A program made the translations under genes and the position numbers. Shown here piece after piece: positions 6,827-30,993 of a stretch of DNA of 64,000 bases. This DNA is from Anaerolineales bacterium (GTDB lineage Bacteria; Chloroflexota; Anaerolineae; Anaerolineales; UBA4823), in contig JAFGQI010000170.1 in NCBI GenBank assembly GCA_016935755.1, positions 5,770 to 69,769 of the forward strand. Direction: 5' to 3'. The notes under the pieces were generated by a model. The model did no database searches and was not told the origin of the DNA. It was given only the letters and a program-made list of their open reading frames with translations. The stretch's first letter is position 1; each line of letters begins with the position of its first letter.

Positions 6827-7447
6827 ATGTCGAAATTACTGCTGGCATCCAACAATCCGGGTAAACTGATTGAAATTCAGGCTTTACTTCAAGATCTGGA
6901 GGTGGAACTGGTAACCCCTGCCCTGCTCGGCCTGGAACTCACAGTTGAAGAGAATGGTCAGACCTACGCAGAGAATGCCGCCCTCAAAGGCCTGGCATTC
7001 GCCCGCCTCTCGGGCATGCTGACTCTGGCGGATGACTCGGGGCTGGAAGTGGATGCCCTGGATGGCCTGCCCGGTTTGCATTCGGCGCGGTTTTCTCCAA
7101 AACCTGGGGCCAGCGATGCTGACCGGCGCCGCTACTTGCTGGAACGCCTGGAGGGGACGCCACCCCCGTGGCCGGCGCGCTTCCGCTGTCTCATCGCACT
7201 GGTCACCCCTGCTGGAGTGGTGCGCTCCACCGAGGGGGTATGCTCGGGAGAAATCATCTCACAGGAACGCGGCCAGAATGGATTCGGCTACGATCCCATC
7301 TTCCTGATCCCGCAGTTGGGGCGGACAATGGCTGAGCTGAGTATGGACGAAAAGAACCAGCTCAGCCACCGGGCCAGGGCTGTCCTGGCTGCCCGACCCT
7401 ACCTGGCAGACTACCTGCGGAACGAATCGCTCACAGATGAAGGTTGA
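6827..7447 (+). CDS. rdgB: non-canonical purine NTP pyrophosphatase (RdgB/HAM1)
   Basis: LLASNNPGKLIEIQ, LADDSGLEVDALDGLPG, GQNGFGYDPIF. Confidence 0.9.
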   Translation: MSKLLLASNNPGKLIEIQALLQDLEVELVTPALLGLELTVEENGQTYAENAALKGLAFARLSGMLTLADDSGLEVDALDGLPGLHSARFSPKPGASDADRRRYLLERLEGTPPPWPARFRCLIALVTPAGVVRSTEGVCSGEIISQERGQNGFGYDPIFLIPQLGRTMAELSMDEKNQLSHRARAVLAARPYLADYLRNESLTDEG

Positions 7448-7487
7448 TGTCTTGTCAAGCGCACTTTTTCGGTTATCATTATAGGGT

Positions 7488-9236
7488 ATGCGCAGCGTAA
7501 ATTTATCCACCTCGGTTGACTGGGTAATCCTGGTCATTCGCTGGGCCTTCTTGATTGGGCTCAGCGTCTGGATGATCAAGGGAGTTGGTTTCACCTTGCC
7601 TCTCTCCATTCTCCTGGGCGTTGCCACCTGTATGAACTTCTTCGCCACCATGTTGGTTGGGGTCAGCCGCCGCAAACGATCTTTTCGCACTGCGAACTTG
7701 TTGGGGGATTTCCTGTTTGCCCACCTGTTTTTCTACTTGAGCGCCCCTTACCAGTTGGATACCTACTGGGTAAGTCTGCTGCCGTTGATCACTGCTTCGT
7801 TATACTACCAGTGGGCCGGTGCAATCGTCTGTATCGTTCTAAACATCATTACCCAGGGTCTGGTTGCTAATTTATTTCTGCCCACAGAGGAAGTTTTCCG
7901 CTTGTTGGGTGTCCTGCTGCCGCTATGCCTGGTAGTTGGTTTGTTCTTCGCCTTCCTGAGCCAGGCGCTGGGGAAAGGGTTATTTCAACGATCCACCGGC
8001 TCTGCGCCGCCCGAGATTGACGAAAAGGAGCGCGAGAGGCGCCGGGCAATATACAATTTAATTTCTGCCCTCAGTTCTTCCTTGAACTATACGCGTGTCA
8101 TGGAGACAGCCCTGGACTTGAGCGCCAAGACATTGGTGGAGCTAAATGCCCCCGCCGAGAAACTGATCAGCGCGGTGATGCTCTATGCCCCTAATGCAAA
8201 CAAAGAACCCGAACTGCGCATCGGCACCTCCCGAGGCCTGGTGCTTTCCGATACGCGCATCACCATGCCTGGCACCACCGGGCTCATTGCCCGGGCGATT
8301 GATGAGGGGCAGCCCACCCTCTCACGGAATCTCCATCGAGACCAGGAGCTAAACCGCTTTCTCAGCCTGAGAGACTGCCGGTCTGTGTATTGCATTCCAC
8401 TGCGCTCAGGTCTGGATGCCTATGGCATTCTGATCTTTGCCCATCCCGAAATCGAGTTTTTCACCCCTGATCGCCGTGAAATCCTGGATATTATTGGCAA
8501 TCAGGCGATGATTGCCCTGCAAAACGCGCAGCTCTACCGTGACCTGGAGCTGGAAAAAGAACGCATGATGGAAATCCAGGAAGAAGCACGCAAAAAGATC
8601 GCCCGTGATCTGCACGATGGGCCTACCCAATCGGTGGCTGCCATTGCCATGCGAGTGAATTTTGCCCGGCGGTTGATCGAGCGCGACGCGAAATCCGCCT
8701 CCGAAGAACTGTTCAAGATCGAAGAGCTGGCCCGCCGCACTACCAAAGAAATCCGTCATATGCTCTTCACCCTGCGCCCCCTGGTGCTCGAGTCCCAGGG
8801 ACTGGTAGCTGCCCTGGAATCAATGGCTGAAAAGACCAAAGAAACATACAATCAGGAGGTGATTGTTCAAGTCGACCCGGAGATCGTGCAAACGCTCGAA
8901 GCCAGCAAACAGGCCGTGGTGTTCTACATTGCTGAAGAGGCGGTCAATAACGCCCGCAAGCATGCCCGGGCGGCGCATATCTGGGTACGCCTGAAATCCC
9001 TGAGGGAAAACCTGAACATGCTAGAAATCGAAGATGACGGGGTTGGGTTTAATGTCGGCGAGGTGGATGCATCATATAACAACCGGGGAAGCCTGGGAAT
9101 GGTGAATATGCGCGAGCGCGCCGAACTGGTCAACGGTGTCCTGCGAATTGAATCGTCCCCTGGACGCGGCACACGGGTGCGGGTGGTTATCCCCTTAAGC
9201 GAAGAAGCGGCTGACCGTTTGCGACACGGACTATGA
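7488..9236 (+). CDS. membrane sensor histidine kinase (multi-TM N-terminus, GAF, HisKA_3, HATPase)
   Basis: Hydrophobic N-terminus. H-box ARDLHDGPTQSV (NarX/DegS type). N/G boxes EEAVNNARKH and DDGVGF..GSLGMVNMRERA. Confidence 0.85.
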   Translation: MRSVNLSTSVDWVILVIRWAFLIGLSVWMIKGVGFTLPLSILLGVATCMNFFATMLVGVSRRKRSFRTANLLGDFLFAHLFFYLSAPYQLDTYWVSLLPLITASLYYQWAGAIVCIVLNIITQGLVANLFLPTEEVFRLLGVLLPLCLVVGLFFAFLSQALGKGLFQRSTGSAPPEIDEKERERRRAIYNLISALSSSLNYTRVMETALDLSAKTLVELNAPAEKLISAVMLYAPNANKEPELRIGTSRGLVLSDTRITMPGTTGLIARAIDEGQPTLSRNLHRDQELNRFLSLRDCRSVYCIPLRSGLDAYGILIFAHPEIEFFTPDRREILDIIGNQAMIALQNAQLYRDLELEKERMMEIQEEARKKIARDLHDGPTQSVAAIAMRVNFARRLIERDAKSASEELFKIEELARRTTKEIRHMLFTLRPLVLESQGLVAALESMAEKTKETYNQEVIVQVDPEIVQTLEASKQAVVFYIAEEAVNNARKHARAAHIWVRLKSLRENLNMLEIEDDGVGFNVGEVDASYNNRGSLGMVNMRERAELVNGVLRIESSPGRGTRVRVVIPLSEEAADRLRHGL

Positions 9237-10065: not shown

Positions 10066-10142
10066 GGGTGGATAGCTCAGTTGGTTAGAGCACTGCGTTG
10101 ACATCGCAGAGGTCGTAGGTTCGAGCCCTATTCCACCCACCA
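10066..10142 (+). tRNA. tRNA-Val (anticodon GAC), CCA encoded
   Basis: Cloverleaf folded by hand. Acceptor GGGTGGA/TCCACCC. D arm AGCTC-AGTTGGTTA-GAGC. Anticodon stem CTGCG/CGCAG with loop TTGACAT. T arm GTAGG-TTCGAGC-CCTAT. Then A-CCA. Confidence 0.9.
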
Positions 10143-18139: not shown

Positions 18140-18216
18140 AATGATGCCACCCGCATCCACTGCCGCTCACACCCTGGCCGCATCGACTGGCTACACCCGG
18201 CGAGGCGCTTCACTGT

Positions 18217-18270
18217 GCGCACGGCAGTACAACTGCCGTGCGCCTCTCGCCCCGCAGTGCAACTGCGGGG
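18217..18270. repeat. two adjacent related perfect hairpins (REP-like or terminator)
   Basis: GCGCACGGCAG-TACAA-CTGCCGTGCGC (11 bp) and CCCCGCAG-TGCAA-CTGCGGGG (8 bp). Both have a GCAGTRCAACTGC core. Confidence 0.5.
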
Positions 18271-18356
18271 CAAACGAGGGGATGCGTTACACGCACCCTA
18301 CTTACTATGTCGATCATAAAAATTGAATGGAGCGAAAAACATTCTAGAGGTCGAAA

Positions 18357-18638
18357 ATGGAACTTGTCGCAATAATATTTATTACTCACTTCATTGTTTA
18401 TTCGCTTTGTATGTATTCAATCCGAATCGGTATGTTAACTGCGTGGAAAGCGGCTGCAATGATGGCTGTCCTAAGTATCCTTGGAGGATATGTTTATTAC
18501 CGTCTAAGTGGCTTTGGGATTCTAGGTGCAATGTGTCTGTGGCCTATGCTATTTATCCCACTCGCAGGAAGTGCATTGGTATGGGGTAAAAATATCGAGA
18601 AAAATGCCCAGCATCGTCACCACTCTATCGCTAAATGA
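18357..18638 (+). CDS. small hydrophobic membrane protein, hypothetical
   Basis: 93-aa ORF with about 3 hydrophobic segments, located in the AT-richer stretch. No family recognised. Confidence 0.4.
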   Translation: MELVAIIFITHFIVYSLCMYSIRIGMLTAWKAAAMMAVLSILGGYVYYRLSGFGILGAMCLWPMLFIPLAGSALVWGKNIEKNAQHRHHSIAK

Positions 18639-18653
18639 TCTGGGTAAGATGCG

Positions 18654-19681: not shown

Positions 19682-19710
19682 TTGACATGCGTCGCAATCT
19701 GTTGTACAGT
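19682..19710 (+). promoter_or_regulatory. promoter of yefM-yoeB
   Basis: TTGACA, a 17-nt spacer, then TACAGT. GGAGG lies 5 nt before the ATG at 19738. Confidence 0.5.
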
Positions 19711-19737
19711 ATATCAGTACATGTATTGGAGGCTGTT

Positions 19738-20028
19738 ATGACCATTCAAACTACCTATACCCAGGCGCGCGCCAGCCTGGCAAAGCTGCTGAGGCAGGTT
19801 ACCCATGACCGCGACGTGGTGATCATCCAGCGCCGCGGCCAGGAGGATGTGGCTATGATCTCGGCTTCTGAGCTTTCCAGCCTGATCGAGACCGCCTACC
19901 TGCTGCGATCACCCAAGAATGCCGAGCGTTTGTTGGGAGCGTTGGCACGCGCCTTGAAAGACGATGGTGCGCCGCAAACGATTGATGAACTGCGCCAGGA
20001 GGTCGGGATTGACCAGGAAAGCGCGTGA
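19738..20028 (+). CDS. yefM: Phd/YefM-family antitoxin
   Basis: TYTQARASLAKLL..VVIIQRRGQEDVAMISASELSSLIETAYLLRSPKNAERL is close to the E. coli YefM pattern. Confidence 0.85.
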   Translation: MTIQTTYTQARASLAKLLRQVTHDRDVVIIQRRGQEDVAMISASELSSLIETAYLLRSPKNAERLLGALARALKDDGAPQTIDELRQEVGIDQESA

Positions 20029-20281
20029 AGCTGTTTTCCACCCGGAGTTCATTGAAGAAATGCGCTATTGGGTCGAAACAGACCGCAAGCTGGCCTTACG
20101 CGCCTTTGACTTGATCGAAGCGATCCTGCGTGATCCATTTCAAGGCAGCGGAAAACCAGAGCCGCTCAAGTACCTGGCGCCAGGGGTCTGGTCGCGACGG
20201 CTGACCCACGAGCACCGGATTGTGTACCTGGTGCGTGACGAGCGGATTGATTTTCTGCAGGGGCGATACCACTATGTTTGA
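20009..20281 (+). CDS. yoeB: YoeB/Txe-family mRNA interferase toxin
   Basis: YWVETDRKLALRAFDLIEAILRDPFQGSGKPEPLKYLAPGVWSRRLTHEHRIVYLV..GRYHY. A TTG start 6 nt after AGGAGG is proposed; ATG at 19985 is the alternative. It overlaps the yefM 3' end. Confidence 0.8.
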   Translation: MTRKAREAVFHPEFIEEMRYWVETDRKLALRAFDLIEAILRDPFQGSGKPEPLKYLAPGVWSRRLTHEHRIVYLVRDERIDFLQGRYHYV

Positions 20282-20302: not shown

Positions 20303-20344
20303 CAAAATTGGGGCTTGACAATTTTGCAAGGGTTATGATAAACT
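20303..20344 (+). promoter_or_regulatory. promoter with overlapping operator-like palindrome
   Basis: CAAAATTG-N8-CAATTTTG (20303-20326) overlaps the -35 TTGACA (20315-20320). An 18-nt spacer leads to TAAACT (20339-20344). TTAACG recurs (twice in full, plus an abutting TAACG) at 20353-20375. Confidence 0.4.
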
Positions 20345-20393
20345 CACGATCGCTTAACGAATCCTTAACGTAACGAAAGGAAAGACGCACTTC

Positions 20394-20483
20394 ATGGTCA
20401 ACACAGTTCTTGCCAATTCTTGCGCTTGCACCCTGGTCGATAGCGGTGGTGCAGCTGTTGCCTTCTCGGAGTGCGCCTGCTGA
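20394..20483 (+). CDS. unannotated 29-codon Cys-rich small ORF
   Basis: Hand translation gives MVNTVLANSCACTLVDSGGAAVAFSECAC*. A GAAAGGAAAG purine tract lies upstream. The ORF is too short for the ORF track and is flanked by the promoter above and the terminators below. Confidence 0.45.
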   Translation: MVNTVLANSCACTLVDSGGAAVAFSECAC

Positions 20484-20513
20484 TCGGAAAGTAATTCCGG
20501 TTATGTGATTACC

Positions 20514-20550
20514 AGCCACGGGCGCCCTCCGGTCCCGTGGCTTTTTTATT
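20514..20550 (+). terminator. intrinsic terminator T1
   Basis: AGCCACGGG, an 11-nt loop, CCCGTGGCT, then TTTTTATT. Confidence 0.7.
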
Positions 20551-20573
20551 CTTGCTTGCCTATCCTCACCTGG

Positions 20574-20609
20574 CCAGCCACGGGAAAACCCTGTGGCTGG
20601 TTTTGTTTT
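20574..20609 (+). terminator. intrinsic terminator T2 (same arm sequence as T1)
   Basis: CCAGCCACGGG-AAAA-CCCTGTGGCTGG followed by TTTTGTTTT. Confidence 0.7.
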
Positions 20610-20647
20610 AGCAGCTTTTGTTTTGGATGTACGTTGTGGAGGTCGCG

Positions 20648-21517
20648 ATGTTTGCTCAAACGAATACCGCTATTCAGGTACGCGAAGCCTACAAGCAGTT
20701 CGGCAGCCCGATCCTGCCGCTCTGGCGCCGCATGCCCCGCTCAAACGGCAAGCCCAATGGCGCGCCGAACACGAACAGTCACGCCTCCTTTGTGGTGGCG
20801 GTGGATCATGTCTCGTTCAGCGTCGCCCAGGGCGAAATTTTCGGCATCCTGGGACCGAACGGCTCGGGCAAGTCCACCCTGATCCGTCTGCTGGCAACCC
20901 TGCTGCTGCCGGATGGCGGCGACATTCGCGTCTTCGGCTACGATGTCGTGCGCCAGCCGATGCAGGTGCAGCGCCTGATCAACCGCGTCTCGGTGGAAGC
21001 CAGCTTCTTCAAGAAGCTCTCGCCGATGGAGAACCTGGTCTACGGCGCACGGCTGTATGGCATGCGCGGCGCCGAGACCCGCCAGCAGGTGGTCGAAATC
21101 CTGACCCGCCTGGGCCTGGAGCAGCGCGCTATCCACAAACCAATGGAGGAAATGTCGCGCGGCATGCAGCAGAAAGTGGCCATTGCCAGAGCGCTGCTCT
21201 CGCGGCCGCGCCTGCTGCTGCTGGACGAACCCACTACCGGCCTCGATCCGCGCTCAAAGCGGGAAGTCCAGCAAGTAGTGCAGGAATTGCGCCAGGAACA
21301 CGGCACCACCATCCTGCTCACCACCCACGACATGACCGAAGCCGACCAGCTGTGCGACCGCATCGCCATCATCGAAGGCGGAAAGATTGTCGCCCTGGAC
21401 ACGCCGGACGCGCTGAAGCGCATCATCCCGCGCAACGGGCACGAACCGACCCTTGAGGACGTGTTCCTGGAACTGACCGGCAAGAAGCTGGTCAAGGAAG
21501 AAGAGACCGTTGCATAA
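20648..21517 (+). CDS. ABC transporter ATP-binding protein (ABC-2/DrrA type)
   Basis: Walker A GPNGSGKST, signature MSRGMQQK, Walker B LLLLDEPTTGLD. The ATG at 20648 lies 5 nt after GGAGG. Confidence 0.9.
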   Translation: MFAQTNTAIQVREAYKQFGSPILPLWRRMPRSNGKPNGAPNTNSHASFVVAVDHVSFSVAQGEIFGILGPNGSGKSTLIRLLATLLLPDGGDIRVFGYDVVRQPMQVQRLINRVSVEASFFKKLSPMENLVYGARLYGMRGAETRQQVVEILTRLGLEQRAIHKPMEEMSRGMQQKVAIARALLSRPRLLLLDEPTTGLDPRSKREVQQVVQELRQEHGTTILLTTHDMTEADQLCDRIAIIEGGKIVALDTPDALKRIIPRNGHEPTLEDVFLELTGKKLVKEEETVA

Positions 21518-21601: not shown

Positions 21602-22183
21602 ATGAGAATTAACGAACCACTATTATCCAGCGAGCACATCTGCCTGGCGCCGATCGACCACGAGAAGGATCCCGAGATCGAGGCCGGCTGGAGCAACGAC
21701 GCCTATTATCTGCGCATGCTCAGCTTTGACCCGGTCCGTCCGATCTCTGCGGCCCAGCAGAAGAAAAAATACGAGGCAATCGAGAAAGAACAGGAAGATG
21801 ACAAAAACCTGTTCTACTACACCATCCGCATGCGCGAAGACGACCGCCTGATCGGTTTTGCTCGCATCCAATGGATCGAGTGGTCGAACAGCACTGGATT
21901 CGTCCAGCTCGGCATCGGCGATGGAAACGCTCGCCTGAAAGGCTATGGCAGTGAAGCGCTGCGCATGCTGCTGCGTCTGGCTTTCGAAGAATATAACCTG
22001 TACCGGCTGACTGCCCTGATCGGCGAATACAACCCGGTCGCCCTGCATGTCTTTGCAAAAGCCGGCTTTGTCGAAGAAGTCCGCCGGCGCCAGGCGCTCT
22101 ACCGGGATGGCCGCCGCTGGGATCTCATCCATATGGGCATCCTGCGGCCAGAGTGGGAACAGGCGAACCGGATAGAAGCCTGA
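21602..22183 (+). CDS. GNAT N-acetyltransferase (RimJ/RimL-like)
   Basis: LIGFARIQWIEW..GIGDGNARLKGYGSEALRMLLRLAFEEYNLYRLTALIGEYNPVALHVFAKAGF. Confidence 0.85.
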   Translation: MRINEPLLSSEHICLAPIDHEKDPEIEAGWSNDAYYLRMLSFDPVRPISAAQQKKKYEAIEKEQEDDKNLFYYTIRMREDDRLIGFARIQWIEWSNSTGFVQLGIGDGNARLKGYGSEALRMLLRLAFEEYNLYRLTALIGEYNPVALHVFAKAGFVEEVRRRQALYRDGRRWDLIHMGILRPEWEQANRIEA

Positions 22184-22226
22184 TCGAGCAACGTGGGAAT
22201 TTTCGCCCACCAGAAAGGATCACCAG

Positions 22227-22787
22227 ATGATAACAGACCTGTTTCGCGGACAGCTTGTCCGCCTGACCGCCGAAGACCCGGAACTGATGGGTAAAGCGTT
22301 TTCGCGCTGGTATCGCGATACAGAATACCATCGCCTGTTGGATACCAGCCCCTCACAGCTCTGGTCAGCTAAAAAGTTCAAGGAATGGATCGAAAAGGAT
22401 TACGAGAAGGACCAGCCAAATTTTTTCCCCTTCCAGATCCACACCTTGAGCGATGACCAGCTGATCGGTTTTCTTGGGTTATTTTTGCCCACCTGGTCTC
22501 ATGGAGACTGCTGGGTAGGCATCGGGCTGGGCGAACGCGAGTATTGGGGCAAAGGCTACGGCACAGACGCCATGCGCCTGGCCCTGCGCTACGCCTTCGC
22601 CGAGCTGAACCTGCACCGCGTTACCCTGGGCGTGTTTGAATATAACCCGCGCGCCATCCGCTCCTACGAAAAAGCCGGCTTCAGGCTGGAAGGCCGCGAA
22701 CGCCAGGTGCTTCACCGGGATGGACAGCGCTGTGATATCTTGATCATGGGAATTTTGCACGAAGATTGGGACAGGATGCAGGCATGA
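22227..22787 (+). CDS. GNAT N-acetyltransferase (RimJ/RimL-like), tandem paralog A
   Basis: GIGLGEREYWGKGYGTDAMRLALRYAFAELNLHRVTLGVFEYNPRAIRSYEKAGF. Confidence 0.85.
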   Translation: MITDLFRGQLVRLTAEDPELMGKAFSRWYRDTEYHRLLDTSPSQLWSAKKFKEWIEKDYEKDQPNFFPFQIHTLSDDQLIGFLGLFLPTWSHGDCWVGIGLGEREYWGKGYGTDAMRLALRYAFAELNLHRVTLGVFEYNPRAIRSYEKAGFRLEGRERQVLHRDGQRCDILIMGILHEDWDRMQA

Positions 22788-23365
22788 ACACAGAGATGAA
22801 ATTGAGTGTTACTTTGTTCCAGGGAGAACTGGTGCGCCTGACCGCCGCCGACCCCCAGACCACCGCCGAGGCCTTCAGCCGCTGGTCGAGAGACTCGGAA
22901 TACTGGCGTCTGCTGGCCAGCGATCCCTGCCTTCCCCATTCTGTCAAGGCCATCAAACAGTGGCTGGAGAAAGACCAGGAGAAAGATCCTCTGCCCTACA
23001 CGATGTTCTTGATCCACACCCTGGAAGATGACCGCCTGATCGGGGATATCGGGCTGGAAGGCTACCTGGGCAGCCACGGCGACACCTTTGTCGGCATCGG
23101 CCTGGGAGAGCGCGAGTATTGGGGCAAGGGTTACGGCACAGACGCCATGCGCATTATCCTGCGCTACGCCTTTTTCGAGCTGAACCTGGAGCGCGTTTCC
23201 CTGGATGTGTTCGAATACAACCCGCGCGCCATCCGCTCTTACGAGAGAGCCGGCTTCAAGCATGAGGGCCGCCTGCGTGGGTATCTCAACCGGGGCGGCA
23301 AACGCTACGATCTCATCTTTATGGGCATCCTGCGCGCTGAATGGCTGGAGATATACGGTAAGTGA
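22784..23365 (+). CDS. GNAT N-acetyltransferase (RimJ/RimL-like), tandem paralog B
   Basis: GIGLGEREYWGKGYGTDAMRIILRYAFFELNLERVSLDVFEYNPRAIRSYERAGF. ATGA overlap with paralog A. Long near-identical nucleotide runs are shared with A. Confidence 0.85.
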   Translation: MNTEMKLSVTLFQGELVRLTAADPQTTAEAFSRWSRDSEYWRLLASDPCLPHSVKAIKQWLEKDQEKDPLPYTMFLIHTLEDDRLIGDIGLEGYLGSHGDTFVGIGLGEREYWGKGYGTDAMRIILRYAFFELNLERVSLDVFEYNPRAIRSYERAGFKHEGRLRGYLNRGGKRYDLIFMGILRAEWLEIYGK

Positions 23366-23434
23366 TCTGGCTTAAAAAATAAACCAGACAAACCCGCTTC
23401 ATGCTGCGGGTTGATTGAAAGGAACGAGGGTAAG

Positions 23435-24262
23435 ATGACAACGCTGGCTCACGAATTCAGGGCGACCTACGCCTTTGTCGAGCGCAACGCCAACCTGATC
23501 AAACGCTACTGGTCATGGGAACTGGTCTGGATGGCCTATTCCATCGCCAACAGCCTCTCGGTCAGCTATATCGGCCTGGGGATGGAGAAGATCGGCGGCA
23601 GCGAAAATGTAGACGGACGCTACCTGGTGCTGTATCTGGTGGTCGGCACGCTGGTCTGGCGCTACCTGTCGATGATTTTCTACTGGATCACCGATGTGAT
23701 CGGCATGGAGCGCTGGGAAGGCACGATCGAATACACCCTGATGGCGCCCATCCACCGCATCACCCATATGGCCGGGCAGACCCTGTTCGCAGTGGTCTAC
23801 AGCATGTTTTTCACCGGCATCATCCTGGCGGTGACCGTGGCGATGTTCGACATCGATTTGAGCCAGGCCAACCTGTGGGGCGGTGTGCTGATGCTCATCG
23901 CCGGCAGCCTGTCTTTCATCGGCGTTGGCATCATGGGCTCCGTCCTGCCGATGCTTTTTCCGGAGCGCGGCTCGCAGATGACGCATGTCATCATCGCTGT
24001 GCTGCTGCTGGTATCTGGCGTGTACTATCCCGTGGATGTACTGCCCAGCCTGCTGCAGAAGCTGGCTGTGGTCAGCCCGGCCACCTATGTGCTGGATGGC
24101 ACCCGCCGCGCCCTGCTGGAAGGTCTGGCAACCCGCCACCTGTGGCCCTACATCTGGCCCACGCTGTTGATGGGGCTGGTCGCCATCCCGGTTGGCCTGT
24201 GGGTGTTCGAACAGGCCGAGCGCTACGCCAAGCGCACGGGTAAACTGCACCGCAACGGGTAG
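23435..24262 (+). CDS. ABC-2 type transporter permease
   Basis: About 6 TM segments. N-terminal FVERNANLIKRYWSWELVW is typical of the ABC-2 permease family. It pairs with the ATPase at 20648. Confidence 0.85.
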   Translation: MTTLAHEFRATYAFVERNANLIKRYWSWELVWMAYSIANSLSVSYIGLGMEKIGGSENVDGRYLVLYLVVGTLVWRYLSMIFYWITDVIGMERWEGTIEYTLMAPIHRITHMAGQTLFAVVYSMFFTGIILAVTVAMFDIDLSQANLWGGVLMLIAGSLSFIGVGIMGSVLPMLFPERGSQMTHVIIAVLLLVSGVYYPVDVLPSLLQKLAVVSPATYVLDGTRRALLEGLATRHLWPYIWPTLLMGLVAIPVGLWVFEQAERYAKRTGKLHRNG

Positions 24263-24277
24263 AAAACGAGTCCAGAG

Positions 24278-25204
24278 ATGAACCAACCCCGCCCATACCA
24301 GAACGGCCAGGATTTCAAGCGCATGAAAGCTTTGCTGGTAGAAGGCCGCAAAGCTGCCAATGGCACCTATTACGTCCACCCCGGCGACCTGAGCTGGTGG
24401 TTGTTTTACAACCTGCCGGAGGACGATCTATGGGCCAACATCTACCTGTGGGAAGATCAGCGCCAGGGCAGCGAGCTGCTCGGTTGGACGCTGTTCAGCC
24501 CGAAATGGTCCAGCTTCGATGTCTTCTTTTACCCAAGCCTCAGAAACAGCGGCCTGGTGGAGCATATGTTCACCTGGAGCATGGAACGCGCCCAGCAGAT
24601 GGCCCGGCAGGCAGGCAAAGCGCGCATCGCCACCGTGTGGATATCGGAAAAAGATACCCGCCTCAGCGGTCTCTTAGGGCGCTGCGGCTGCCTGCCCAGC
24701 CCAGAAGGCCTGCTCTATCTGACCCGCTCTCTGGAAGGCCCGCTGCCCGAAAGCGCGCTTCCTGCAGGCTTTCAGGTGCGCTCAGTAAAAGATGAAAGCG
24801 AGGCGGGGATGCGCGCGGCGGCTTCCTATGCCGCTTTCGAATCAACAATGCCCTTCGAAACGTACCAGCAGCGCTACCTGCGCTTCATGCGCTCCCCGGT
24901 TTATCGCTCAGAGAATGACCTCATCATCACGGCCCCAGACGGGCAGGGCGCGGCTTTCTGCATCCTCTGGCTGGATTCCACCAACCAGGTGGGGCTGTTT
25001 GAACCGGTTGGCGCCCACCCCGCTCACCAGCGGAAGGGCCTGGGCAAAGCCGTTATGCTGGAAGGGCTCAGGCGTATGCAAACCCAGGGGATAAAGACCG
25101 CCATGGTCTGCGTGGAGCAGGATAATCTGCCCGCCCAGCGGCTGTACCTGTCCTGCGGTTTCAAGATCACGGACCGCCTAATCACATATGAAAAGAATCT
25201 ATAA
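24278..25204 (+). CDS. two-domain GNAT-family acetyltransferase
   Basis: C-terminal GNAT motif A VGAHPAHQRKGLGKAVMLEGLRRM. The 308-aa length implies a degenerate N-terminal GNAT-like half. Confidence 0.7.
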   Translation: MNQPRPYQNGQDFKRMKALLVEGRKAANGTYYVHPGDLSWWLFYNLPEDDLWANIYLWEDQRQGSELLGWTLFSPKWSSFDVFFYPSLRNSGLVEHMFTWSMERAQQMARQAGKARIATVWISEKDTRLSGLLGRCGCLPSPEGLLYLTRSLEGPLPESALPAGFQVRSVKDESEAGMRAAASYAAFESTMPFETYQQRYLRFMRSPVYRSENDLIITAPDGQGAAFCILWLDSTNQVGLFEPVGAHPAHQRKGLGKAVMLEGLRRMQTQGIKTAMVCVEQDNLPAQRLYLSCGFKITDRLITYEKNL

Positions 25205-25239
25205 GTCACGCTTTGGCGTGTGAAAGAAGAGAAAATACA

Positions 25240-26253
25240 ATGTTAGCTTTAGAAAATACTGATCTGCTCATACTCCCAGATGCGCCGGCAATCCCGGGGC
25301 TGATCTTCCGCCGTTTTCAGGGCGAGAGCGATTTCCCCCACATGCACGCCATCATCCACGGATGTAAACAAGCCGATGACAGCGAACGCTCAGATACGGT
25401 GGAGGATATCCGCCGCAACTATTCCCACCTGGTCAACAGCGACCCCGATCGCGACATGCTCTTTGCCGAGATCGCTGGCGAAGCCATCGCCTACAGCCGG
25501 GTCAGCTGGCGCACGGAGCCTGATGGCAAGCGAATATTCCAGCACTTCGGCTTTTTGCTGCCCGCCTGGCGACGCCAGGGCATTGGCCGCGCCATGCTGA
25601 GATACAACCAGGCGCACATCCGCCAGCTGGCAGCTGCCCAGACCAACCATGCCCCGCAAATGTTTGAGTCTTTTGCCGGGGATAAAGAAACCTCGGCCAC
25701 CGCCCTGCTGCTGAGCGAAGGCTACCTGGCGGTGCGACACTTCTACGAAATGGTGCGCCCGGACTTAGAAAATATCCCCGAAGCCCCCATGCCGGAGGGG
25801 TTAGAAGTGCGCCCCGCCGGGCCTGAGCAGTTCCAGGCCATCATCGACGCCAGCAAGGAGGCTTTCAGAGATCACTGGGGCTTCAGCGAGGATGATGAGC
25901 CGACCGTCGCGCAGATCGCCGAGGACCCCAATACGGATCCCCGCCTGTGGCGGGTTGCCTGGGCCGGGGACGAAATTGCCGGAATGGTGCTGAGTTTCAT
26001 TGATCAAAATCAGAACGCCGAGTACAATCGCTTGCGAGGCTGGACGGAAAATATCTGCGTCCGCCGCCCCTGGCGGCGCCTCGGTCTGGCGCGCTCTCTG
26101 CTGGTGCAGAGTCTGCACGCCGTCAAGGAACGCGGCATGCGCGAGGCGGCTCTGGGCGTGGATACGGAAAACCTGTCTGGCGCTCTGCGATTATATGAAA
26201 GCGTAGGGTTCAGACCCGTCAAGCGCTTTACAACCTATCACAAACCCTTCTAA
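25240..26253 (+). CDS. two-domain GNAT acetyltransferase (MshD-like architecture)
   Basis: Two motif-A copies: WRRQGIGRAMLRY and WRRLGLARSLLVQSLHAVKERG. ATG at 25240 is preferred over the track TTG at 25213. Confidence 0.7.
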   Translation: MLALENTDLLILPDAPAIPGLIFRRFQGESDFPHMHAIIHGCKQADDSERSDTVEDIRRNYSHLVNSDPDRDMLFAEIAGEAIAYSRVSWRTEPDGKRIFQHFGFLLPAWRRQGIGRAMLRYNQAHIRQLAAAQTNHAPQMFESFAGDKETSATALLLSEGYLAVRHFYEMVRPDLENIPEAPMPEGLEVRPAGPEQFQAIIDASKEAFRDHWGFSEDDEPTVAQIAEDPNTDPRLWRVAWAGDEIAGMVLSFIDQNQNAEYNRLRGWTENICVRRPWRRLGLARSLLVQSLHAVKERGMREAALGVDTENLSGALRLYESVGFRPVKRFTTYHKPF

Positions 26254-26269
26254 GATCGGAGATTTACCT

Positions 26270-26881
26270 GTGATTCGAGCCGTAATCTGGGATTTAGGTG
26301 GTGTGCTGGTGCGCACAGAGGACAGCAGGTCTCGCGAGGATTTAGCCAGGCGCAGCGGGAAAACACGCCGGGAATTAGAAGATCTGGTTTTTGGTCTCGA
26401 GGCGGGCCGCCGGGCGCAGCTGGGCGAGCTCAGCCATGCTGAGCATTGGGAATATTTGCGGCAGTACTTCCATTACACCCCTGAAGAAATCCAGGCCTTT
26501 CGCCTGGATTTCTTCAGGGGAGACAGGCTCGATCATGATTTGATCGATTATATCCGCAGCCTGCGCGGGCGCTGCAAAACTGGGCTGCTCAGCAATGCCT
26601 TCTCCGATTTGCGCCATCTGGTCACCGAGGTCTGGAACATTGCGGATGCCTTCGACGAGATGATTATCTCTGCCGAGGCCGGGATAATGAAGCCCGACCC
26701 GCGCATCTATCACCTGGCGCTCTCCAGGCTGGGTGTGGAACCTCAAGAAGCCATCTTCATCGATGACTTCGCCCACAACGTGGATGGAGCAAGAGCAGTC
26801 CAGATGCATGCCATCCACTTCAAAAATCCCGCCCAGGCGCGCGCAGAGTTGGAAGCCCTCTTGAATGGAGACAGGGCATGA
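26270..26881 (+). CDS. HAD-superfamily hydrolase (subfamily IA)
   Basis: VIWDLGGVLV motif I, LLSNAF motif II, and AIFIDDFAHNVDGA motifs III/IV. Confidence 0.8.
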   Translation: MIRAVIWDLGGVLVRTEDSRSREDLARRSGKTRRELEDLVFGLEAGRRAQLGELSHAEHWEYLRQYFHYTPEEIQAFRLDFFRGDRLDHDLIDYIRSLRGRCKTGLLSNAFSDLRHLVTEVWNIADAFDEMIISAEAGIMKPDPRIYHLALSRLGVEPQEAIFIDDFAHNVDGARAVQMHAIHFKNPAQARAELEALLNGDRA

Positions 26882-28275
26882 CAGATATGGATCTGACCGG
26901 CCTGCGCCTGTCCGAGGCCGCCGAGCTGATCGCCCGGCGGGCGATCACCCCGCTTGACCTGACCCAGGCGCACCTGGAGCGTATCGCCAGCCTGGACTCC
27001 CACCTGAACTGCTTCATCACCCTGACTGCCGACCTGGCCCTGCAGCAGGCTCACCAGGCAGGCCAGGCCCTGCGCCGCCTGGGGCAGCCTCCCAGCCCGC
27101 TCTTTGGCCTCCCCATCGGATTGAAGGACCTTTACGAAACCCAGGGCGTCCGCACCACCGCTGGTTCGACCTTCTTTGCGGACTACATCCCCGCCGCAGA
27201 CTCGGCAGTGGTGGCGAAGCTCAAGAGCTGCGGGGCCATCCTGCTGGGCAAGCTCAACATGCACGAGATTGCCCTGGGCGTGACCAATGTCAACCCCCAT
27301 TACGGCGCCTGCCGCAATCCCTGGGCGCTCGAGCGCGTCTCTGGGGGATCCTCGGGCGGCAGCGCGGCCGCCCTGGCGACCTGCCTCTGCCTGGGCGCGC
27401 TGGGCTCAGACACGGGCGGCTCCATCCGCATCCCGGCTGCGCTGTGCGGGATCGTGGGCTTGAAGCCGACCTATGGAGCGGTCAGCCTGCGCGGGGTGAT
27501 GCCGCTGAGCTGGAACCTGGATCACGCCGGGCCGATGGCGCGGCGGGTGCGGGATGTTGCCATACTCCTACAGAGCATCGTCGGCTATGACCCAAGCGAT
27601 CCTTACTCGCTGCAGGGAAAAGCGGAGAATTATACCGCCCAGATTAGTGAGGGCGTGCGCGGCTGGCGCGTGGCTCTGGCGACCGGTGATTTCTTCGAGG
27701 GGATTGACTCCGAAGTCTGGGGAGCTGTTCAGCAGGCCAGCCAAGTCTTCGAAGGGCTGGGGGCGCGGGTGGAGCGGGTGGAACTGCCATTTGCTCGGCA
27801 GGCGGCCCTTGCCAACGGGCAGATGGTCGTCGCCGAGGCGGCCTTCATCCATCGCGAGCGACTGCAGAACCAGCCTGAGATGTTCGGGGCAGATGTCCTG
27901 GCGCGTTTGCAGAGCGGCGCGGCGCTGGGACAGCCAGAATACATTCAGGCGCGGCGCACGCAGTCCCTGCTGCGGCGCGAGTTCGAGCGGTTCTTCGACC
28001 ATTTTGATCTTCTGCTCACGCCCACCACGCCCATTCCCGCGCCGCTGATCGAAGGCCCGGATGCGGTCGAGCAGGCGCGCCTGCTGACCCGTTTCACCGC
28101 GCCCTTCAACCTGACCGGCCTTCCGGCAATATCGCTGCCCTGCGGCTTCAGTTCCCAGGGGCTGCCCATCGGCCTGCAGATCATCGCCCGCCCCTGGGCA
28201 GAGGCCGCCCTGCTGCGCGCCGCCTATGCCTACGAGCAGGTCACCGACTGGCATACCAGAACACCCAATCTGTGA
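26878..28275 (+). CDS. amidase-signature family amidase
   Basis: GGSSGGSAAALA..GSDTGGSIRIPAALCG is the amidase signature. ATGA overlap with the HAD gene. Confidence 0.9.
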   Translation: MTDMDLTGLRLSEAAELIARRAITPLDLTQAHLERIASLDSHLNCFITLTADLALQQAHQAGQALRRLGQPPSPLFGLPIGLKDLYETQGVRTTAGSTFFADYIPAADSAVVAKLKSCGAILLGKLNMHEIALGVTNVNPHYGACRNPWALERVSGGSSGGSAAALATCLCLGALGSDTGGSIRIPAALCGIVGLKPTYGAVSLRGVMPLSWNLDHAGPMARRVRDVAILLQSIVGYDPSDPYSLQGKAENYTAQISEGVRGWRVALATGDFFEGIDSEVWGAVQQASQVFEGLGARVERVELPFARQAALANGQMVVAEAAFIHRERLQNQPEMFGADVLARLQSGAALGQPEYIQARRTQSLLRREFERFFDHFDLLLTPTTPIPAPLIEGPDAVEQARLLTRFTAPFNLTGLPAISLPCGFSSQGLPIGLQIIARPWAEAALLRAAYAYEQVTDWHTRTPNL

Positions 28276-30789: not shown

Positions 30790-30960
30790 TTTTAATAAGA
30801 TTTGCCCCTTCCGGTCTACAAGAAAGGGCAAAACGCGAGAACTCACTGCCGCCCTCTCATCTTCCAGAACCTCCGTCTGCCGGAATTGGCACCGTCGATT
30901 CATATAGAACCCGGTTGCCGAGGCTTCATAGGGCCGGTCCCTCCGCCTCTCTGGATAAGA
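30790..30960 (-). promoter_or_regulatory. SAM-I (S-box) riboswitch with expression-platform hairpin
   Basis: Minus strand reads TCTTATCCAGAGAGGCGGAGGGACCGGCCCTATGAAGCCTCGGCAACC..GGTGCCAATTCCGGCAG..GGAAGATGAGA, matching the S-box core consensus from memory. It is followed by the TTTGCCCTTTC..GAAGGGGCAAA hairpin and then the AAGGAG RBS of metK. Confidence 0.85.
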
Positions 30961-30993
30961 GCGCCATTTAGGGGCTATAAATTTGTAGACAAC

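Follow-up and report, generated by a model that had tools for sequence, protein, structure and literature searches.

A probable ribosome-dependent transcription attenuator conserved upstream of a DrrAB-like transporter and acetyltransferase operon in Anaerolineae

In the attenuators of the trp and his type, the position of the ribosome selects between an antiterminator and a terminator, and transcription is terminated when translation is absent (superattenuation). The his leader carries a chain of alternative pairings, in which A:B, C:D and E:F compete with B:C and D:E. Ribosomes stalled on the leader ORFs (open reading frames) of erm, cat, vmlR and lmo0919 remodel the leader RNA and switch on a resistance or efflux gene (PMC9226507, PMC5418344). 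Also, the BmrB leader peptide controls bmrCD in Bacillus subtilis by ribosome-mediated transcription attenuation (PMC4191407). Here we analyse a small ORF in a 64,000-nucleotide (nt) stretch of DNA from an Anaerolineales bacterium (assembly GCA_016935755.1, contig JAFGQI010000170.1, positions 5,770 to 69,769), referred to as the window throughout. The initial annotation, made from the window alone, described a Cys-rich ORF of 29 codons between yoeB and a block of ABC transporter and GNAT acetyltransferase genes, and offered two interpretations, namely a bacteriocin-like precursor gene and a leader peptide for an efflux operon of the bmrB-bmrCD type. The second is favoured by the comparison with relatives, in which the ORF, its promoter, an antiterminator and two terminators are conserved ahead of a DrrAB-like operon. 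We consider it likely that this ABC transporter/GNAT operon is controlled by ribosome-dependent transcription attenuation, with the small ORF as its leader ORF.

The ABC ATPase encoded by the first gene of the operon served as the anchor for the comparison, and 80 loci were taken from species-representative genomes. The ATPases of these relatives have identities of 63-77%, and 79 of the 80 loci are labelled Chloroflexota, mostly Anaerolineae-type metagenome-assembled genomes plus Anaerolinea thermolimosa. A tblastn search with the window's peptide recovered "…SECAC" just 5' of the ATPase in several loci. An element profile built from 23 seed sequences and run by nhmmer then located, in 69 of these 80 loci, a ~240-nt element that lies directly 5' of the orthologous ATPase gene and invariably on the same strand (E-values of 1e-49 to 1e-10); most of the remaining 11 have too short an upstream sequence or partial matches only. 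Among the carriers is a cultured strain, Anaerolinea thermolimosa IMO-1, with the element at 7737-7993 of locus L053. Six parts are common to all 69 copies: a promoter, a Shine-Dalgarno site, an ORF, a near-invariant box at the ORF 3' end (CGGAGUGCGCCUG, termed R2), a stop codon near R2, and two U-tailed hairpins (T1 and T2) with the same stem sequence. The promoter reads TTGAC(N)-17/18-TGnTA(A/G/C)ACT and lies 26-65 nt before the leader start codon, which is preceded by GAAAGGA or GGAGG. The 5'-untranslated repeats of the window correspond to a semi-conserved TTAAT…CTAA(C/G)GAAAGG motif of the relatives.

The leader RNA contains complementary boxes that allow mutually exclusive pairings. In the window, the box R1 lies between the Shine-Dalgarno site and the AUG and pairs with R2 over 9 nt with 89% complementarity (AGACGCACT / AGTGCGCCT), forming the closing helix in the fold of the leader ORF segment, and in the relatives it reads GGCGCACUU and abuts the AUG. 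R2 is also the partner of R3, a box in the distal 5' arm and loop of T1, with an energy in the window of -24 kcal/mol for the resulting R2:R3 antiterminator. R4, which is the T1 3' arm, is in turn 100% complementary over 10 nt to R5 in the 5' arm of T2, as reported by the repeat search that also returned T1 and T2 themselves. T1 in the relatives consists of GGCCACGGG, a loop containing UGCGCUCC, and CCCGUGGCC followed by a U-run; T2 repeats the stem sequence of T1 and is likewise followed by a U-run. U-rich tails are present in 68 of the 69 copies for T1 and in 67 for T2.

Covariation is found in every one of these helices. T1 is paired in 96% of alignment cells with compensatory changes that include AU-to-GC and CG-to-UA, and T2 in 88%, also with compensatory changes. 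R1:R2 is paired in 75.6% of cells (changes on both sides in 4 of 7 pairs), R2:R3 in 75.5% (compensatory change in 8 of 13 pairs) and R4:R5 in 95.8% (compensatory change in 5 pairs), and slid controls gave about 40%. For both the terminator and the antiterminator sets, the covariation score was above 500 of 500 shuffles. An alignment-free test compared the duplex energy of each box with its own partner to that with partners from other genomes, and the own partner was preferred for R1:R2 (p = 6e-6, 51 of 69 cases), R2:R3 (p = 1e-7), T1 (p = 2e-12), R4:R5 (p = 4e-6) and T2 (p = 6e-12). Compensatory variants of R2 and R3 can be followed in individual loci, such as GUAUUGCGCC with GGCGCGUAC in L076 and GGAGUGUGCC with GGUACACUCC in L023; L051 and L027 are alike in pattern. 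Further, each genome keeps one stem sequence for both T1 and T2, and the two stems vary in step from one genome to another (CCACGGG, CCGCGGG, CCGUGGG); the proposed relay step, in which R4 would capture R5, is based on this observation. T1 and T2 contain G·U pairs, vary in loop length and end in U-tails, and for these reasons they were rejected as DNA operator palindromes. A mid-ORF hairpin, weak in the window, is GC-rich in the relatives (CCGCCG…CGGCGG, encoding Ala-Ser-Gly-Gly codons), is paired in about 70% of cells with changes on both sides in 6 of 6 pairs, and may act as an RNA polymerase pause hairpin. A helix between CUAACG in the 5'-untranslated region and CGUUAGG after the stop (P0) was paired in only 53% of cells and is not claimed.

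These elements have the arrangement of an attenuator. A short ORF with a ribosome-binding site lies on the same strand in the 5' leader of the operon and is kept as an ORF in 69 of 69 copies; intrinsic terminators (T1 and T2) stand between it and the first structural gene; and an antiterminator (R2:R3) excludes the terminator and overlaps the stretch covered by a ribosome at the ORF end. In the 69 leaders, 17-33 nt separate the stop codon from T1, and a terminating ribosome therefore covers R2 but not T1. Each transcript was also folded in a form that ends at the T1 loop and does not yet include R4. The antiterminator then formed in 68 of 69 leaders when the ribosome-binding site and the early ORF were masked, in 56 of 69 as naked RNA, and in 4 of 69 with a ribosome on the stop codon. 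Between the end of T2 (20609) and the ATPase start (20648) no further promoter-like site was found. The initial annotation had taken the region for a self-contained promoter-to-terminator gene, an interpretation that gives way here to that of a 5' leader of the downstream operon.

We infer the order of events and the dependence on translation from these alternatives. The proposed switch would use six boxes, with R1 near the AUG, R2 in the last codons, R3 and R4 in T1, and R5 and R6 as the arms of T2. In the OFF state, a ribosome that translates the leader smoothly would come to rest on the stop codon and cover R2, which would allow R3:R4 (T1) to form; should T1 be read through, R5:R6 (T2) would form as a backup and transcription would end before the ATPase gene. 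If no ribosome is loaded, R1:R2 would form, leaving T1 and T2 free to form and occluding the leader start site. In the ON state, a ribosome would stall earlier in the leader, and the stalled or a queued ribosome would cover R1 and leave R2 free. R2 would then pair with R3 as the antiterminator, and the freed R4 would pair with R5, such that neither terminator forms and the polymerase reads into the operon.

Several points weigh against this interpretation. It is built on comparative sequence analysis and thermodynamic folding, and the 69 genomes are mutually related, so that the counts are not independent events. Minimum-free-energy folds of the full-length leaders keep T1 and T2 with R1 masked (antiterminator in 13 of 69), and the switch must therefore be kinetic, as in classical attenuators. 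The naked truncated RNA already favours the antiterminator in the 56 leaders mentioned, and the branch from no translation to OFF would require R1:R2 to form first. R1 is upstream of the AUG and would be missed by a lone ribosome that stalls near the ORF end, and no regulatory codon is enriched in the leaders. In addition, the control pairing R3:R6 covaries too, and the likeness of the T1 and T2 stems could have a cause other than R4:R5 pairing.

The leader ORF itself looks translated, because its frame is kept open in all 69 copies and its substitutions are biased by codon position. It has 28-35 codons and starts with ATG in 67 leaders and GTG in 2. Over the stretch bounded by the start codon and the R2 end, the alternative frames are open in just 24 and 20 of the 69. 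In a comparison of moderately diverged pairs, codons 2-12 differ 100/136/219 times at codon positions 1/2/3, third positions varying most, and single-base synonymous and non-synonymous changes stand at 89:95. No Rfam match was obtained over 20303-20609, even at E <= 10.

These data also bear on the possibility of a non-translated riboswitch or protein-binding leader RNA, in which a ligand or protein picks between R2:R3 and R3:R4 and the ORF is incidental. R1, R2, R3 and the mid-ORF hairpin are indeed conserved more as nucleotides than as peptide, and the alternative pairings are present whatever translation does. However, an ORF of this length with a Shine-Dalgarno site has been kept in 69 of 69 leaders despite frame changes, with the other frames open in about 30%, the substitutions carry the codon-position bias described above, and the stop position lets a terminating ribosome cover R2 in every case. 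The RNA also matches no Rfam family, and no conserved multi-helix fold of the aptamer type was found; RNAalifold, when unaided, recovered only T1 and T2 (compensatory change in 14 of 18 pairs). We regard such a ligand- or protein-operated leader as improbable.

At the C-terminus of the peptide, the raw DNA of the loci shows conservation of the nucleotides in the block CCUU(N)UCGGAGUGCGCCUG, with or without a stop codon after it, and R2 is read in two frames. Eighteen leaders, the window included, use frame A and end in …(F/L)SECAC*, with the variants SECAY, AECAS, SEYAY, SHCVC and LEWAC; the other 51 use frame B and end in …P(S/C)R(S/N)AP…, with the stop codon 18-33 nt past the R2 start. At least 10 frame switches are required on the neighbour-joining tree of the ATPase, and the nearest relative of the window (L006) uses the other frame, with indels seen in the pairwise alignment. 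What stays constant is the presence of the ORF, its length and a stop just past R2, which lies 14-33 nt past the R2 start in 69 of 69 leaders. The first C-A-C of the window (TGC GCT TGC) is R-x-R (CGG CTT CGC) in relatives. Because R2 is conserved as nucleotides in two frames and the first C-A-C is replaced in this way, the Cys-rich character is, on this comparison, incidental, and the "SECAC" end is a by-product of R2.

This outcome leaves little room for the other interpretation of the initial annotation, that of a secreted or modified Cys-rich bacteriocin or ribosomally synthesized and post-translationally modified peptide (RiPP), whose product the ABC transporter would export or the GNATs would acetylate. 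The window does have the appearance of such a locus, with a short gene under its own promoter, a Cys-rich C-terminus, a Gly-Gly motif, hairpins after the gene and transporter and GNAT genes as neighbours. However, the supposed C-terminal core is kept as RNA, lies in the other frame in 51 of 69 relatives after repeated switching, and even in the same frame its terminal Cys can be Tyr or Ser (SECAY, AECAS, SEYAY), while the first C-A-C is exchanged as above. The hairpins belong to the conserved antiterminator system, and the transporter is of the DrrAB/ABC-2 type. The initial annotation had noted that no RiPP maturase is adjacent, and this is upheld: Pfam and NCBIfam searches of the 10 neighbouring proteins gave only YefM/YoeB, the DrrA-like ATPase, the ABC-2 permease, GNATs, the HAD hydrolase and the amidase, with no maturase and no peptidase-domain ABC exporter, and none of the adjacent genes encodes a radical-SAM, YcaO, LanM-type or C39-peptidase protein. 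With neither the core nor the Cys residues conserved as amino acids, a RiPP or bacteriocin precursor is extremely improbable.

The near-invariance of the frame-B end raises a different possibility, a nascent-chain-specific attenuator of the TnaC/SpeFL kind, in which a small molecule and the peptide would arrest the ribosome at R2 or the stop, giving OFF or a timed release. P(S/C)R(S/N)AP hardly varies, its Arg codon changes only synonymously (CGG, CGT, CGC, CGA), and the N-terminal codons show a coding-like substitution bias. R-A-P-P and R-A-G-P are ribosome arrest motifs, and the frame-B motif loosely resembles them. However, 18 of the 69 leaders, including the window, use the other frame and lack the motif, the frame has switched repeatedly, and the window's peptide is without any Arg. 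The same positions covary with R3 (alignment pair 145:220 is GC in 51, UA in 4 and AU in 3), and RNA pairing thus already explains the frame-B pattern. An arrest that depends on the peptide sequence is accordingly unlikely, and we retain the attenuator in which ribosome position, and not the peptide, would govern the pairing of R2.

As to the signal, the leaders contain no codon runs for one amino acid, the top enrichment being 1.9-fold for Ile and Asn, and the R-x-R motif occurs in only 23 of 69 leaders and not in the window. An attenuator responding to amino-acid starvation (trp/his/leu type) is unlikely, since there is no regulatory codon cluster. The operon downstream is conserved in the relatives, comprising the ATPase, small GNATs, the permease, MshD-like GNATs, a HAD hydrolase and an amidase. 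Both transporter proteins resemble DrrA/DrrB, with scores under the family cut-offs in the Pfam and NCBIfam searches; the permease is syntenic and 56-86% identical in relatives, and a PDB sequence search with it returned no match. Among solved structures, the small GNATs stand closest to SpeG-type diamine/spermidine N-acetyltransferases and AAC(6'). Our best guess for the signal is that the leader would sense whatever slows elongation on it, such as antibiotics that perturb translation or other polycationic amines, which fits an operon with an exporter and AAC(6')/SpeG-like acetyltransferases. The fuller proposition, of a class-wide Anaerolineae switch in which one antiterminator disarms two terminators, senses aminoglycoside-like or polyamine polycations and induces detoxification by exporter and acetyltransferases, is put forward tentatively, and we would sooner doubt it than rely on it.

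The features of the window are compiled in Table 1. All of the sequence features listed in the initial annotation were found again at this locus: the 29-codon ORF with its two C-A-C motifs and internal SGG, the purine-rich ribosome-binding site, the TTGACA-18-TAAACT promoter (here with a TG extension), the 8-N8-8 palindrome over the -35 box, the TTAACG repeats, the two strong terminators 3' of the ORF, and the setting between YefM/YoeB and the ABC ATPase, GNAT and ABC-2 permease genes.

Table 1. Features of the leader, the downstream operon and other parts of the window (positions in the window)
Feature	Position	Strand	Details
Palindrome over -35	20303-20310 / 20319-20326		CAAAATTG-N8-CAATTTTG; from repeat search
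Sigma-70-type promoter	20315..20344	+	TTGACA 20315-20320; TAAACT 20339-20344, within extended -10 TGaTAAACT 20336-20344; 10/12 consensus matches
Predicted transcription start	near 20351
TTAACG/TTAACG/TAACG repeats	20354..20375	+	5'-untranslated region; full copies 20354-20359 and 20365-20370, abutting TAACG 20371-20375
Shine-Dalgarno region of leader ORF	20375..20384	+	GAAAGGAAAG
R1 box	20383..20393	+	AGACGCACUUC; complementary to R2
Leader ORF	20394..20483	+	29 codons, ATG 20394, TGA 20481-20483 (1 nt past R2); product MVNTVLANSCACTLVDSGGAAVAFSECAC; C-A-C at residues 10-12 and 27-29
Mid-ORF hairpin	20428..20452	+	weak in window
R2 box	20467..20479	+	codes …SECAC in window frame
T1	20514..20547	+	5' arm AGCCACGGG 20514-20522; 3' arm CCCGUGGCU (R4) 20534-20542; U6 tail; -21.2 kcal/mol, z = -5.3
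R3	20518-20531	+	partner of R2; distal 5' arm and loop of T1
T2	20572..20609	+	13-bp stem 20572-20584 / 20590-20602, then UUUUGUUUU; -24.1 kcal/mol, z = -5.1
R5	20576-20585	+	in T2 5' arm; perfect complement of T1 3' arm 20533-20542
DrrA-like ABC ATPase	20648..21517	+	first regulated gene; own Shine-Dalgarno GGAGG 20638-20642
Three tandem small GNATs (Acetyltransf_3)	21602..23365	+	first gene 21602-22183; second and third genes overlap by 22 nt
ABC-2 (DrrB-like) permease	23411..24262	+
Two large MshD-like GNATs, HAD hydrolase, AtzE/GatA-type amidase	24278..28275	+	syntenic in many relatives
YefM/YoeB	19687-20281		overlapping genes; own promoter-like site 19682-19710
Intergenic stretch of ~500 nt	18140-18653		only short ORFs; between M1-like peptidase and PD40-repeat genes
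SAM riboswitch	30854-30961	-	RF00162, 92 bits
tRNA gene	10066-10139	+

Variation between the loci was also recorded. The palindrome over the -35 box is particular to the window; upstream of the -35, relatives often carry CCCC preceded by an A/T-rich stretch. The palindrome was rejected as an operator, being without conservation in relatives, where its left arm falls on the frequent A/T-rich stretch. YefM/YoeB is not at the corresponding position in any of the 80 relatives and looks to have been inserted just 5' of the leader promoter. Copies of the small GNAT gene between ATPase and permease range from 0 to 4 among relatives, and the genes at 24278..28275 are co-oriented with the operon and are candidate members of the same transcript. 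L079 (7270-7770) has a tandem duplication of promoter, leader ORF and R2, the first copy (~7270-7450) standing directly 5' of a complete leader bearing T1 and T2. L062 carries a diverged second leader-like copy (400-1478), with a promoter, a 30-codon ORF (MGITNNIRMFRERTLPGGVGSRWSRMLGSR) and a single U-tailed hairpin, ahead of a class I S-adenosylmethionine (SAM) methyltransferase gene (660-1478) that itself precedes the main leader and the ABC operon.

The element appears to represent an undescribed attenuator family, conserved across a large and mostly uncultured bacterial class. A gathering-threshold Rfam scan of the whole window returned only the SAM riboswitch and the tRNA, both elsewhere, and literature searches on Anaerolineae leader peptides and terminators found the element described nowhere; a search on Chloroflexi leader-peptide attenuation and ABC transporters gave a match that concerns histidine regulation. 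Of six leader peptides sought by exact match, only one was on record, as a "hypothetical protein", and the only contig retrieved for the first small GNAT was 2.2 kb long and lacked the leader. The apparent Cys-rich peptide gene would then be the shadow of an RNA switch, which is a caution for small-ORF and RiPP mining. The family provides an alignment of 69 natural variants carrying covariation, and its design is instructive in that two terminators would be coupled to one sensor by a relay and that the frame has changed repeatedly over an invariant RNA box. If the inducer is a translation inhibitor or polyamine, the operon would constitute a conserved inducible detoxification system of Chloroflexota.

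The proposed switch shares features with each of the systems considered at the outset. As in BmrB-bmrCD, a small translated ORF would lie directly 5' of ABC exporter genes and be co-transcribed with them, and alternative stem-loops including an intrinsic terminator would have their readthrough set by the ribosome on the leader. BmrCD is a heterodimer of half-transporters, whereas the Anaerolineae operon encodes a separate DrrA-like ATPase and ABC-2 permease. The Anaerolineae leader further differs from bmrB in its two relay-linked terminators and in the anti-antiterminator box at the ribosome-binding site. BmrB is also the longer of the two, and its terminator is reported to lie inside the bmrB coding region (PMC4191407). 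Set side by side by description in this way, the two systems are alike in mechanism only. With the trp and his attenuators, the element has in common the leader ORF, the mutually exclusive hairpins, the presumed choice by ribosome position and, as in his, a domino chain; it differs in having no regulatory codon run, in preceding transporter and acetyltransferase genes and not a biosynthetic pathway, in that both downstream hairpins are U-tailed terminators, and in the placement of R1 upstream of the AUG and not in the ORF. Similarly, the erm, cat, vmlR and lmo0919 leaders resemble it as short upstream ORFs, here before an exporter-type operon, although the antibiotic response in Anaerolineae is a guess. 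As a rule, the leaders of those resistance genes are far shorter or work at the level of translation initiation, and they have a narrow taxonomic range, whereas the Anaerolineae element is class-wide and stands before a highly conserved operon.

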